DNA of 64,000 nt from an uncultured beta proteobacterium (GCA_963750805.1 CAVVSV010000015.1:7468-71467), one strand, 5' to 3'. Counted from the stretch's first letter, positions 1,788 to 62,581 are shown. Notes: generated from the sequence alone by a model not told the origin. Made by a program: numbers and translations.

Positions 1788-2705
1788 TCAGCTCAGGATC
1801 ACACTGCTCAAGCGTCTGCGGTAGGTGGCCACTGTGGGGTCGGCGGGGGGGATTTGGCCATCGGCTACCTTCACGGCAGGCGGTTCGATGATGTCCAGGA
1901 TGGCGATGAAGGTCTTGCGGGCCTGGTCGCTGTTCCAGGTTTTGTCGCGCATCAGAATTTCCAGCAACTCGTCCATGGCGGCGGTCCATTGCTGGGCAGC
2001 CATCAGCACCTGGGCTTTGCCGAAGCGGGCCTCAAAATCACGCTTGTTGGTGGCAATCTTGGCGTCAAAACTGCCGACTGTCCCCGTCAGGTCTTCATTG
2101 TTAGCTACTGAATCGATAGCGTCCATCCATCGCTGCAGGGAATCGAACTTGCGCACCAAACCTGTTTTGGCAATCACCGGGGCAAAGTTCACTTTGGCCT
2201 GGTCGACATCGGCGTCACGGCCGGTCAGCAGCAAAAACTTGATGTAGTCGAAACGCGCTGTTTCGTCGTCCGGGTTTTTCAGAACGGCCTGATGCAGGGC
2301 TTCGCGCATGGCGTCGGGGTCATCCGCGGAGGGAGCGTCTGAGAGTTCAACACCCGTCACCTCGGCTTCCAGCACATCGCCCTCAGGCACGTGTTTGTCC
2401 AGAAACGCCTTGATTTGCCCTTCCGGCAAGGCCCCGGTGAAGCCGTCCACCGGCTTGCCGCCCATCATCAGGACACAGGTGGGGATGCTGCGGATGCCAA
2501 AGGCCTGGCTCAACTCCTGCTCCTGGTCCGAATCAATCTTGACCAGTTTGAAGCGCCCGGCATATTCGGTCTCAATGCGCTCCAGCAGGGGACCAATCAC
2601 CTTGCACGGGCCACACCAGGGCGCCCAGAAGTCGACCAGCACGGGCATCTGCATCGACGCGGCAACCACCTCGTCATCAAAATTTTCAACGGTAACGTTC
2701 ATCAT
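1788..2705 (-). CDS. thioredoxin-domain co-chaperone, YbbN/CnoX-like (Trx fold plus C-terminal TPR-like domain)
   Basis: N-terminal thioredoxin fold with a WCGPC active site, followed by a roughly 190-aa helical repeat domain. Confidence 0.85.
   Translation of the reverse strand: MMNVTVENFDDEVVAASMQMPVLVDFWAPWCGPCKVIGPLLERIETEYAGRFKLVKIDSDQEQELSQAFGIRSIPTCVLMMGGKPVDGFTGALPEGQIKAFLDKHVPEGDVLEAEVTGVELSDAPSADDPDAMREALHQAVLKNPDDETARFDYIKFLLLTGRDADVDQAKVNFAPVIAKTGLVRKFDSLQRWMDAIDSVANNEDLTGTVGSFDAKIATNKRDFEARFGKAQVLMAAQQWTAAMDELLEILMRDKTWNSDQARKTFIAILDIIEPPAVKVADGQIPPADPTVATYRRRLSSVILS
2079..2120 (-). repeat. dispersed tripartite 42-nt motif, copy 1 (in ybbN-like gene, sense)
   Basis: GCTAT CGATTCAG TAGC TAACAATGAAGACCTGAC GGGGACA. 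Confidence 0.6.
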
Positions 2706-2756
2706 GTGGGGAATCTCAAGTAAGCAGGTCGGGGTGAAAAAGTAAAATTAAAGCCT

Positions 2757-3251
2757 ATGAAAACTATTCAAATCGGCGTCGTCATGGGTTCCCGGTCCGA
2801 CTGGGACACCATGCAGCATGCAGTGCAGATTCTCCAACACTTCGGAATTCATCACGAAGCCCGGGTGGTCTCGGCCCACCGCATGCCGGACGACATGTTC
2901 GCTTACGCGGAATCCGCTGCGGGCCGCGGCCTCAAAGCCATCATCGCGGGTGCGGGGGGCGCAGCCCATTTGCCGGGCATGCTGGCCGCCAAAACCACGG
3001 TGCCCGTGCTGGGTGTGCCGGTTGCCACCAAACACCTGCATGGCGTGGATTCCCTGCACAGTATTGTTCAAATGCCCAAGGGTATTCCCGTCGCCACGTT
3101 TGCCATTGGCGATGCAGGTGCTGCCAATGCTGCGCTGTTTGCCGTGGCTATGCTGGCCAATGAAGATGCCGAGCTGCGCACACGGCTGGAGGCTTTCCGC
3201 GCTGCGCAAACGCAAACCGCCCGCGACATGACGGTGCCGCCTGCGCTATGA
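2757..3251 (+). CDS. purE: N5-carboxyaminoimidazole ribonucleotide mutase
   Basis: 164 aa with VVMGSRSDW and GAGGAAHLPGM signatures. It sits immediately upstream of purK. Confidence 0.95.
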   Translation: MKTIQIGVVMGSRSDWDTMQHAVQILQHFGIHHEARVVSAHRMPDDMFAYAESAAGRGLKAIIAGAGGAAHLPGMLAAKTTVPVLGVPVATKHLHGVDSLHSIVQMPKGIPVATFAIGDAGAANAALFAVAMLANEDAELRTRLEAFRAAQTQTARDMTVPPAL

Positions 3252-60365: not shown

Positions 60366-61526
60366 TTACTTGACGGCGGCCACAATTTTGGTAGCCGCTT
60401 CGGCCATGGTGTCAGCGGAAATGATGGGCAGGCCACTTTCAGCCAGCAGCTTCTTGCCCAACTCATCATTGGTGCCTTTCATGCGCACGACCAGCGGCAC
60501 TGACAAGTTCACGGCTTTGCAGGCCGTGATCACGCCGGTGGCAATGGTGTCGCACTTCATGATGCCGCCGAAAATGTTGACCAAAATGCCTTTGACATTC
60601 TTGTTCTTCAGCATGATCTTGAAGGCTTCGGTGACCTTCTCGGCCGTGGCGCCGCCGCCTACGTCCAGAAAGTTGGCCGGCTCGCCGCCGAACAGCTTGA
60701 TGGTGTCCATGGTGGCCATGGCCAGACCCGCACCATTCACCAGGCAGCCAATGTTGCCGTCCAGGCTGATGTAGGCCAAGTCGAACTTGCTGGCTTCCAC
60801 TTCAGCTGGATCTTCTTCGTCCAGATCGCGGTATGCGACGATTTCGGGATGGCGGAACAGCGCGTTGGCGTCGAAGTTGAACTTGGCGTCCAGCGCCTTG
60901 ATGTTGCCGTTGCCTTCCAGAATCAGCGGGTTGATTTCCACCAGCGAGGCGTCGGTGTCCATGTACACCTTGTAGAGCTTTTGCATCACGTCAACGGCTT
61001 GCGCGGTCGAGCCAGAGGGTACGCCAATTGCATCGGCCAGCTTTTTGCCCTGGGCATCGGTCAGGCCGGTGGCCGGATCAACGATTTCAGTGATGATTTT
61101 TTCAGGTGTGTCGTGAGCGACACCTTCAATGTCCATGCCGCCCTCGGAAGAGACAATGAAAGCCACGCGCTGGGTGGCGCGGTCCGTCACAGCCGACACG
61201 TAATATTCTTTTTTGATGTCCGCACCGTCTTCAATCAGCAGGCGGCGAACTTTTTGACCTTCGGGGCCGGTCTGGTGGGTGACCAGTTGCATGCCCAAAA
61301 TTTCACCGGCGAGCTTTTTCACCTCATCAATGGAGCGGGCCAGCTTGACGCCACCGCCCTTGCCGCGACCACCGGCGTGGATCTGGGCTTTGACAACCCA
61401 TACCGGGCCACCGAGTTTTTGGGCAGCTTCCACCGCCTCTTGAACGGTGAACGCCGGAATGCCGCGAGGCACCGGGACACCAGCTTGACGCAAGATTTCC
61501 TTGCCTTGGTACTCGTGAATCTTCAT
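60366..61526 (-). CDS. sucC: succinyl-CoA synthetase beta subunit
   Basis: [14 protein letters not shown]-terminus and an ATP-grasp body. The ATG at 61526 is preferred over the upstream start. Confidence 0.95.
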
Positions 61527-61645
61527 GAGGTCTCTCTCAGGAATGGGTGGGAAGAACTGTGCAGACTTGGAATGTATCATGCTGCAACGCACCAATCTTT
61601 AAGGCAACTTACAGTCCAGGGTGTCAAGGAATTACGGAGTGACCC

Positions 61646-62581
61646 ATGTTCAAGGTATTTATTGATGGCGAAGCCGGTACAACCGGCTTGCAAATTCGGG
61701 AACGTCTGCAGCTCATGCCGGCCATCGAAATGGTCAGCATTGCACCTGAACTGCGAAAAGATCCCGCTGCCAAACGTGCGCTGATGGCGCAGGTTGACCT
61801 GGTTGTGTTGTGCCTTCACGATTCTGCCGCTATTGAATCCGTAGCAATGATTGACGATATTGCAAGGACTTCAGGCCAACCAGGTCCCAAAATCATCGAT
61901 GCATCGACGGCGCACCGCACAGCGTCGGGATGGGTGTTCGGGTTTCCCGAGCTTGTCGCCGGTCACAGCGATCTGGTTCGCAGCGCACAGCGGGTTGCCA
62001 ACCCGGGTTGCTATGCCACAGGTGCCATTGCCTTGATTCGCCCGTTGGTGGATGCCGGTTTGATTCCCCGGGATCATGCGTTGACCTTGCCCGCGGTGAG
62101 CGGTTATACCGGTGGTGGCCGTTCCATGATTGAGGCCTACGAAAAAGGCGAAGCGCCCGCGTTTGAGGTCTACGCCCTGGGGCTCAAACACAAGCACCTC
62201 CCCGAAATCATGAAATACACGGGGCTGAGCCGCCGCCCGGTGTTTGTTCCTTCGGTGGGCAATTTCAGCCAGGGCATGCTGGTGCAGTTGCCGCTGGATC
62301 TGGACTGTTTGCCTGGCAAGCCTGGCGCACAAGATTTGCACGTCGCGCTGGCCCAACACTACGCGGGCAGCGAGTTTGTAACGGTCGAAGCGCCCACAGC
62401 TGGCGACAAGATTGACCCGCTGGCGCTGGTAGACACTAACAAAATGGAACTGCGTGTGTTTGCCAATCAGGGTGCCGATGATGACTTCCACCACGCTGTT
62501 CTGGTGGCCCGCCTGGACAATCTGGGCAAAGGTGCCAGTGGCGCTGCCGTTCAAAACCTCAAGCTGATGCTGGGTCTTTGA
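61646..62581 (+). CDS. argC: N-acetyl-gamma-glutamyl-phosphate reductase (type 2)
   Basis: [21 protein letters not shown] and the active-site NPGCYATG. Confidence 0.9.
61829..61870 (+). repeat. dispersed tripartite motif, copy 12 (argC, sense)
   Basis: GCTAT TGAATCCG TAGC AATGATTGACGATATTGC AAGGACT. Confidence 0.55.

Follow-up and report, generated by a model that had tools for sequence, protein, structure and literature searches.

Why would unrelated genes of one bacterium carry the same set of some fifty nucleotides, read in different frames and on either strand? The question is raised by a stretch of 64,000 nucleotides (nt) from an uncultured beta proteobacterium (GCA_963750805.1, CAVVSV010000015.1:7468-71467), referred to here as the window, in which positions are counted from the first letter. 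An earlier note on this DNA, made from the sequence alone, had described a motif recurring inside genes such as moaC, tsaB and uvrA, and had proposed an element of DNA or RNA tolerated by coding sequences. Here we report that the window holds 14 copies of this motif, that its conservation lies in the nucleotides, and that relatives keep the sites while its central part changes by lineage. We consider it highly probable that the motif is a DNA recognition signal, built in place and read by a trans-acting host factor.

Results

A long bipartite motif is present in 14 copies

The consensus of the 14 copies in the window is tGCTAY-N8-TAGCWAACWAT-N7-TGACGGGGACT-N3-GGC(-TTTT). A 56-nt weight matrix, iterated on the window, returned exactly these 14 copies and left the range between 12 and 39 bits empty. 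Leave-one-out scores of the copies ranged from 21.5 to 54.8 bits, while the maximum in block-shuffled windows was 11.2 bits, and the five weak copies scored 16-33 bits under a matrix trained on the nine strong copies alone. The core AGCWAACWAT-N7-TGACGGGGAC was matched nine times with at most three mismatches, against 0.01 matches expected; the chance expectation for copies of the motif in the window is 0.01-0.1. Every site named in the earlier note carries the motif, far above chance.

At least 10 of the 14 copies agree at 25 positions, which are spread over approximately 48 nt. The 5′ part is a 21-bp palindrome, TTGCTAY-N7-RTAGCAA (right arm also written RTAGCWA), and the G-rich 3′ block reads ACG(G/T)GGG(A/G)CT-N3-GGC. 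Outside the full copies, GCTAY-N8-TAGC was not found and AGCWAAYWAW gave one stray match; because the half-motifs are virtually absent on their own, the motif is one unit and not a chance juxtaposition. The spacers are near random between copies while the blocks are nearly invariant, which is the signature of a recognition site and is unlike that of decaying copies of a repeat.

Two further features of the copies were observed. A run of T (TTTT, often TTTTTG) follows 3-6 nt past the GGC in most copies, several of them intragenic (register +56 to +62), and the motif may thus extend to about 60 nt. This run is not preceded by a GC-rich hairpin and so does not look like an intrinsic terminator. 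At motif positions 22 and 26, the two W of TAGCWAACWAT, T..A is found in four copies, A..T in four, A..A in two and T..T never, in what are small numbers; the intergenic copies are all A..T.

Copies are found on both strands (10 plus, 4 minus) at irregular spacings of 466 to 18,106 nt, giving a density of one per 4.6 kb. Twelve lie in coding sequence and two flank recX (Table 1).

The constraint lies in the nucleotides

Translation of the intragenic copies gave eight in sense orientation (five in the GCT frame, two in the frame starting from T7 and one in the CTA frame) and four in antisense, which share a single frame (...GCT ... ATA/GTA GCA); the remaining two copies are intergenic. The earlier note had counted six sense copies in the GCT frame and three antisense copies, in the tpsA-like, M48 peptidase and pglL-like genes. 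Five of those six are borne out and the three antisense copies stand, but the purK copy lies on the minus strand and is therefore antisense to purK, making a fourth. The peptides quoted in that note are all correct on translation, as is its placing of tsaB and uvrA one nucleotide later. In the CTA frame TAGC would give a TAG stop, and the stop is avoided as had been claimed: tsaC is the sole copy there and has GAGC, read GAG-CTG. In the T7 frame a T at position 22 would give a TAA stop, and both copies there carry A.

Codon use within the patches is equally distinctive. Across the 12 intragenic copies, the G+C content at third codon positions (GC3) is 0.40 (80/199), compared to 0.74 (6402/8692) in the rest of the same genes (Fisher p=1.5e-22), and the patches are rich in codons that are otherwise rare: CTA (1% of Leu), GTA (6% of Val), ACT (8% of Thr) and GCT (13% of Ala). 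The cleanest case of codon choice is argC. The earlier note had taken the argC patch to be variable or longer than in homologues; it is neither, as its 18-residue peptide is identical or nearly so across 95 orthologues of exactly 311 residues. Two relatives encode this peptide using GC-ending codons, as GCG ATT GAA TCC GTC GCC ... ACC AGC and GCC GTG GAG TCA GTC GCC ... (loci L017 and L018), and the window as GCT ATT GAA TCC GTA GCA ... ACT TCA. With the matrix of the window the L017 site already attains 21 bits, though its lineage uses another form of the motif (see below), so that part of the weak argC match stems from the protein sequence.

Three sense frames, antisense copies, intergenic copies and low GC3 together support conservation at the nucleotide level, without convergence of proteins, as the earlier note had argued. 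The same data sharpen its proposal of a DNA or RNA element to DNA: mixed orientation, the lack of a consistent fold and the lack of an Rfam match speak against RNA.

Copies were built in place

Alignments through the patch contain no gaps in seven proteins: MoaC (18 sequences), TsaB and TsaC (L015), PglL (L008 and L004), M48 (L008), PurK (PDB 10bm_A) and ArgC. In these proteins the patches are in-place replacements or codon choice, and no insertion was found. In TsaB, HYQFKSKLFTIDGDYRL aligns without gaps with CYAFDGKLWTQYGDHCL of L015, and 24 of 51 nucleotides differ by a count on the alignment; the differences from L015 to the window include the synonymous shifts AAG->AAA, CTG->CTA, ACG->ACT and GGC->GGG, together with replacements.

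The patches tend to lie where the protein varies. The MoaC patch, which had been described as variable or longer than in homologues, is the most variable patch of that protein (column identity 0.66 compared to 0.94 in the rest) but is not longer than in Comamonadaceae orthologues: a 4-residue difference from Escherichia coli MoaC is common to all the aligned ones, whichever form of the motif their lineage carries. Identity within this patch falls from 0.88 in the first six residues (A-I-E-F-E-A) to 0.53 in the last ten, and the 5′ block does overlap conserved residues, as claimed, with A-I-E in both MoaC and ArgC. Column identity in the UvrA patch is 0.34, compared to 0.91 in the rest, with gaps there in 17 of 20 sequences; the UvrA, EamA and UDG (uracil-DNA glycosylase) copies all lie in linkers or segments whose length depends on the orthologue.

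Permissive columns and a partial prior fit (A-I-E in MoaC and ArgC, Y.F..KL.T..GD in TsaB) indicate that the motif was installed where the sequence was already half fitting and change was tolerated. As judged from these alignments, the motif arose by substitution in the gapless proteins, and in argC by synonymous codon choice.

Sites are inherited and the central block changes in concert

The best matches of MoaC, UvrA and ArgC are 91-96% identical and come from lake metagenome assemblies, with Rhodoferax and Burkholderiales names further down. The host is, on these protein matches, a freshwater member of the Comamonadaceae close to Rhodoferax. In the closest contigs (L004-L007 and L010, with genes of approximately 80% DNA identity) the M48, moaC, pglL and uvrA copies are found at orthologous positions, where identity is 89% for block positions, 79% for semi-conserved positions and 64% for spacers. 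The related loci carry 1-4 copies per 10-23 kb.

More distant loci carry variants, or dialects, of the motif. GCTAY...RTAGC and ACG.GGG.CT are common to all lineages, while the central block is lineage-specific. L008 and L017 use GCTAY-N8-kAGCTGYTnrCGCA-N6-GACGGGGGCTA; L011 and L012 use ...ATAGCWAACTAT...GGGCTACAGGC; L015 (GCA_965187945.1) uses ...ATAGC-wwwTTATGCATATTww-ACGTGGGCTAGrGCC; and further variants occur in L014 and L016. Rhodoferax sp. PAMC 29310 (L013) has only a degenerate remnant, in uvrA.

Comparison of two lineages separates what follows the site from what follows the genome. For non-orthologous copies, identity of the central block (positions 22-36) is 0.56 among those of the window lineage and 0.48 among those of the L008/L017 lineage. 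Between the two lineages its identity is 0.30 at orthologous sites (moaC, pglL and both recX flanks) and 0.29 at non-orthologous ones; the orthologous moaC site in L008, for instance, carries the dialect of the L008 lineage. The N8 spacer behaves in the opposite way, with an identity of 0.59 at orthologous sites compared to 0.40 at non-orthologous sites, and spacer identity within a lineage is 0.44. As the central block tracks the lineage and the spacer tracks the site, the sites are inherited by descent while the recognition block evolves in concert within each genome. One consequence of this concerted change is that the variable patch of MoaC is one 12-residue peptide in one lineage and EAVHAASTGATG in another. 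That relatives keep the sites while the central block follows the lineage implies a reader acting in trans.

Copies outside genes are placed at gene 3′ ends or between convergent genes. In L015 the four copies (4438, 13679, 15582 and 19504) are without exception intergenic and share one strand of the locus. No copy is present in its tsaB, tsaC and UDG orthologues at the positions used in the window; the intragenic share of copies seems to differ strongly between lineages. At two intergenic places (L008 2978-3064 and L002 81-167) the palindrome GCTAT-N7-ATAGC is common to a strong copy and a weak pseudo-copy on the opposite strand, and the weak partner seems a mere echo of the palindrome.

A scan of metagenome contigs with the exact 20-base core found one intergenic locus only, in two samples (L002 and L003), and the same scan of 2.9 million viral contigs gave no match, so that the exact core is rare in these two collections. 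Because dialects differ, such exact-core scans are no census of the motif. A literature search on motif strings returned only primer coincidences, and an exact look-up of the MoaC of the window returned no record.

Individual copies and their surroundings

The copies of the window are listed in Table 1, and several have counterparts elsewhere or lie at recognisable places in their genes. The tsaC copy is located at the junction of the YrdC and Sua5_C domains. The UDG copy is in a stretch of low complexity and variable length that precedes the Pfam UDG domain (residues 119-271). Orthologues of the EamA copy (L014 7122, in the L014 dialect), of the uvrA copy (L010, L011, L014 and L016) and of the M48 copy (L005, L006, L007 and L010) were found. 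The M48 copy lies just after a TTG start that is conserved in L010; the called start of this open reading frame (ORF), 44135, is too far upstream, and the TTG before SPIQQSF is the likely one. Similarly, the mechanical ORF start of moaC is 44069, and orthologues point to the methionine of MNPT... at approximately 44156. The copy in the recX/recA gap has orthologous copies of other dialects at L017 11508 and L018 11453; both recX-flanking sites (argC/recX gap and recX/recA gap) persist in lineages of different dialect. Downstream of the copy at 62609 lies a complement with which its 3′ block can pair (GACGTGGACTTGAGG ... CCTCAGTCGTCGTC); this has the look of a terminator for the convergent genes.

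Table 1. Motif copies in the window. Strand is that of the copy, and scores are leave-one-out. Genes were identified by Pfam; MoaC and ArgC were confirmed against solved structures.
Location	Coordinates	Strand	Reading and remarks	Score (bits)
ybbN-like thioredoxin-TPR gene	2069..2124	-	sense, GCT frame (AIDSVANNEDLTGT); Pfam Thioredoxin + TPR_20	39.6
purK (weak)	3981..4036	-	antisense; best in sense orientation -24 bits; gapless against PDB 10bm_A	21.5
tsaC/sua5 (weak)	5168..5223	+	sense, CTA frame; TAGC -> GAGC (GAG-CTG); gapless against L015 orthologue	22.8
tsaB	8874..8929	+	sense, frame from T7 (YQFKSKLFTIDGDY); gapless codon alignment with L015	49.5
Family-4 type UDG gene	9890..9945	+	sense, GCT frame; N-terminal extension	29.5
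EamA transporter gene	13491..13546	-	sense, GCT frame; between two EamA repeats	30.0
tpsA-like gene (19567-32622, minus)	31597..31652	+	antisense	51.3
uvrA	36633..36688	-	sense, T7 frame (15-residue peptide); hypervariable linker	39.0
M48 peptidase gene	43950..44005	+	antisense; signal-peptide coding region	39.3
moaC	44416..44471	+	sense, GCT frame (14-residue peptide)	53.1
PglL/Wzy_C-type O-antigen ligase-like gene	45038..45093	+	antisense; patch gapless against L008 and L004	47.5
argC (weak)	61825..61880	+	sense, GCT frame; match raised by synonymous codon choice	24.4
Convergent argC/recX gap	62609..62664	+	intergenic; orthologous copy L017 10946	38.1
recX/recA gap	63153..63208	+	right end a few bases into the recA 3′ end	54.8

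A segment at 46212-59364 differs from its surroundings in composition, with a GC content of 51-54% compared to about 60%. It encodes a TPR protein, a type IV pilin, a GAF-MshEN-T2SSE ATPase, a class-II cAMP phosphodiesterase-like protein, a CHASE2 adenylate/guanylate cyclase, FHA and PP2C proteins, a CHASE2 Ser/Thr kinase and TerC, and is syntenic with L017 582-7611 and L018 2-7490. The idea that this 46-59 kb segment is a recent island, which would explain the missing copies, was rejected because its genes are syntenic in L017 and L018.

The tpsA-like ORF (19567-32622, minus) is a giant gene of 4351 codons with internal tandem DNA repeats. Four units 708 nt apart (27863-30286) repeat a 300-nt reference segment at 100% identity, and the gene also contains three 636-nt units (98-100%) and three 744-nt units (96-100%). 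It has an ShlB/FhaC-type transporter gene upstream (32668-34305) and a FecR-domain gene downstream (18131-19576). Only one copy of the motif was found in the whole 13-kb gene, near its 5′ end.

Discussion

Comparison with known dispersed sequences

DNA uptake sequences (DUS) of Neisseriaceae are 12 nt long, and uptake signal sequences (USS) of Pasteurellaceae consist of a 9-nt core plus AT tracts, approximately 30 nt in all. Both occur in all frames and both orientations, favour poorly conserved residues, come about by substitution and are missing from genes acquired recently (PMC2817400); their dialects share a conserved core and follow phylogeny, and intergenic copies lie near terminators (PMC3630211). 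The present motif resembles them in several respects. Its intragenic copies use all frames and were made by substitution at permissive or synonymous positions, its dialects surround a shared core with positions retained in core genes, and its intergenic copies lie near gene ends. It may also be over-represented across the genome; in the window, 14 copies in both orientations compare to at most 0.1 expected.

Other classes share fewer properties with the motif. Cyanobacteria carry thousands of copies of HIP1, the highly iterated palindrome (GCGATCGC), a simple palindrome of 8 bp with no settled function. It likewise acts at the DNA level, occupies coding sequence in all frames, spreads by substitution and not by transposition, and is conserved at orthologous sites, but the present motif is long, asymmetric and composite, with a lineage-specific block. 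Repetitive extragenic palindromes (REPs) lie outside genes, fold into stable hairpins and spread as copies. With REPs and REPINs (RAYT transposases) the motif has in common that it is a short, lineage-specific dispersed repeat with a GTAG-like tetranucleotide and a small inverted repeat; it differs in that 12 of the 14 copies are intragenic, no stable fold is formed, the spacers are unrelated and the copies originated in place. In the case of Rickettsia palindromic elements (RPEs), an insertion of 100-150 bp makes the host protein longer. Like RPEs and in-frame miniature inverted-repeat transposable elements (MITEs), the motif is a repeated element inside protein genes that is read as an extra or altered peptide; unlike them it leaves seven proteins gapless, and its copies are not related along their whole length. 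It also departs from structured RNA families in its mixed strand, lack of a common fold and lack of an Rfam match.

The BRE repeat of Comamonadaceae (Rhodoferax, Polaromonas and Delftia) is approximately 90 bp long and 69% GC, often tandem, and present in 1-29 copies per genome (Hot et al. 2011; PMC3110155). Like the motif it is a repeat of Comamonadaceae, and some BRE copies lie inside ORFs. The motif, of approximately 50 nt, has an AT-rich 5′ half, never occurs in tandem and bears no sequence relation to BRE, which was rejected as its identity since it is a different repeat by size, GC and arrangement. Sigma-70 and sigma-54 promoters, the LexA box, OxyR or LysR-type regulator (LTTR) boxes, the IHF site, Tn3 inverted repeats, dif/Xer sites and oriT were likewise set aside, as by eye they misfit in spacing, conserved bases and intragenic abundance.

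A model for the origin and upkeep of the motif

In the explanation that we favour, the motif would be a double-stranded DNA recognition signal of approximately 50-58 bp, consisting of a small palindrome, a lineage-specific central block, a G-rich block and often a T-run, and a trans-acting host factor would read it. On this view copies are not inserted but arise where they stand, through point substitutions at places where the local sequence is already a partial match and the protein can bear the change: in loops and linkers that vary, in signal peptides, at synonymous sites and at gene ends. They are then kept for long at the same sites, while the central blocks of all copies would track the specificity of the reader of that lineage and so give rise to dialects. 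The force may be a molecular drive of the uptake-signal type, in which competent cells would prefer, take up and recombine motif-bearing DNA, and better-matching variants would spread through the genome.

The in-place origin, the persistence of positions and the concerted change of the central block point to a drifting trans-acting reader combined with a force that pulls all sites toward it. Uptake-sequence drive is the only well-documented force of that kind, and is therefore the best-fitting known mechanism. The data show the nucleotide-level constraint, the origin in place, the conserved positions and the concerted change by lineage; from them we infer that a protein reader exists, and that it belongs to a DNA-uptake machine is speculative. 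The pilus genes in the window, a major-pilin-like gene (47942-48385) and a T2SSE/MshE-type ATPase gene (48563-50983), lend slight support to uptake. The general statement, a DNA signal built in place and read in trans, is highly probable. Taken as a whole, we hold the favoured explanation tentatively, at somewhat below an even chance, and its uptake-specific mechanism, by which the motif would work like an uptake signal without being filed as a member of the DUS/USS family, at rather short of even.

Several observations weigh against uptake drive. With approximately 25 conserved positions over some 48 bp, the motif is several times longer and richer than DUS or USS. Its dialects swap a whole block of about 14 nt, whereas those of DUS and USS differ by one to three bases, and its density of one copy per 4.6 kb is below that of Neisseria or Haemophilus. 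The conserved segment of approximately 14 kb (46-59 kb) is free of the motif in three lineages, which pure drive does not predict. A literature search found no report of competence or uptake specificity in Comamonadaceae. Finally, no receptor was identified; only the pilin-like and ATPase genes were seen in the window.

Alternative explanations

The main rival is an array of sites for a chromosomal DNA-binding protein (a nucleoid, segregation or occlusion factor, a gyrase- or IHF-type protein, or a global regulator), each site being maintained by ordinary selection. The alternation of conserved blocks and spacers, together with the 21-bp palindrome, is typical of sites bound by dimers; sites persist across lineages, as on both flanks of recX in the window, L017 and L018; and the motif-free 14-kb block suggests a positional logic over indiscriminate accumulation. 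Architectural sites such as parS, matS, SBS, NBS, KOPS and Chi are 8-16 bp long, and either occur as a rule in some tens per genome or show strong strand polarity. The present motif, with one site per 2-5 kb in both orientations and irregular spacing, is unlike parS, matS, KOPS or Chi, and selection on each site hardly explains rare codons and amino-acid changes in a dozen unrelated genes; we regard such an array as unlikely, though a serious contender. Next comes a selfish templated writer, which would overwrite partly matching sites by short-patch conversion, using single-stranded DNA as in retrons or oligonucleotide recombineering, or a homing nuclease with copy repair. It would account for an origin in place without insertions or deletions, for a central block homogenised throughout a lineage irrespective of site, and for tsaB, where the 24 of 51 nucleotide differences from L015 would be easily made in one templated event. 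A template would homogenise the N8 and N7 spacers too, yet these follow descent; the weak partial copies in argC, tsaC and purK (21-24 bits) fit gradual substitution; and no retron, reverse transcriptase or nuclease gene was seen among the Pfam-scanned ORFs of the window. A writer of this kind is improbable.

For a miniature mobile element inserting in frame (similar to a MITE, RPE or REP/REPIN), the length-variable segments that hold the UvrA, EamA and UDG copies leave room for old insertions, and the short inverted repeat GCTAY/RTAGC includes a GTAG-like tetranucleotide. This possibility is largely refuted, and very improbable, as seven host proteins run gapless through the patch, there are no target-site duplications or stable hairpins (fold z-scores scatter around 0), the spacers are unrelated where true copies would diverge evenly along their length, 12 of 14 copies are intragenic unlike REP elements, and the 2.9 million viral contigs hold no match to the exact core. 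An element acting in transcripts, as a structured motif, small-RNA target, terminator or attenuator, would suit the T-run after most copies, the intergenic copies close to gene 3′ ends and the pairing of the 3′ block at 62609, but we consider it extremely improbable. With eight sense and four antisense intragenic copies the same RNA is not made, and terminators within 12 genes would do harm. The folds of 19 copies have only a 4-5 bp stem in common, with minimum free energy z-scores of -4.3 to +1.3, mostly -2 to +1, and Y9 and R17 of the palindrome show no covariation by eye. A search of the window gave no Rfam match at gathering score, and ARAGORN found no tRNA or tmRNA. Lack of a stable fold, lack of an Rfam match, unconserved spacers and the absence of lone half-motifs thus argue against both a mobile insertion and a structured RNA. 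A coding coincidence, that is, similar peptides combined with codon bias, is partly upheld by argC alone, where the peptide is conserved in all listed orthologues and L017 already reaches 21 bits. For the family as a whole it is refuted and retains practically no probability: unrelated peptides are read from different frames and strands, two strong copies are intergenic, the patch codons oppose the bias of the genome, and next to no copies are expected by chance.

Implications

The window may reveal an undescribed genome-wide system of self-DNA signals in uncultured freshwater Comamonadaceae related to Rhodoferax, with a bipartite motif of approximately 55 bp that substitutions have written into core genes and sharply different dialects that co-evolve with their reader; this remains a doubtful, if real, possibility. 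If the signal is genome-wide, sequence-specific recognition of self DNA would extend to abundant freshwater Betaproteobacteria, and a drive at the DNA level could dictate up to about 17 codons in the essential MoaC, TsaB and UvrA, by way of rare codons and replacements. The dialects of lineages that are approximately 80% identical would then be barriers to gene flow or labels, and could be used to assign metagenomic contigs to lineages. If the reader is part of the uptake machinery, this would be the first uptake specificity outside the Neisseriaceae and Pasteurellaceae, and by far the most information-rich; if it is not, the motif would represent a new chromosome-wide recognition code that visibly shapes proteins. 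The long bipartite architecture of such a genome-wide signal would also give a tractable handle for finding the reader protein.

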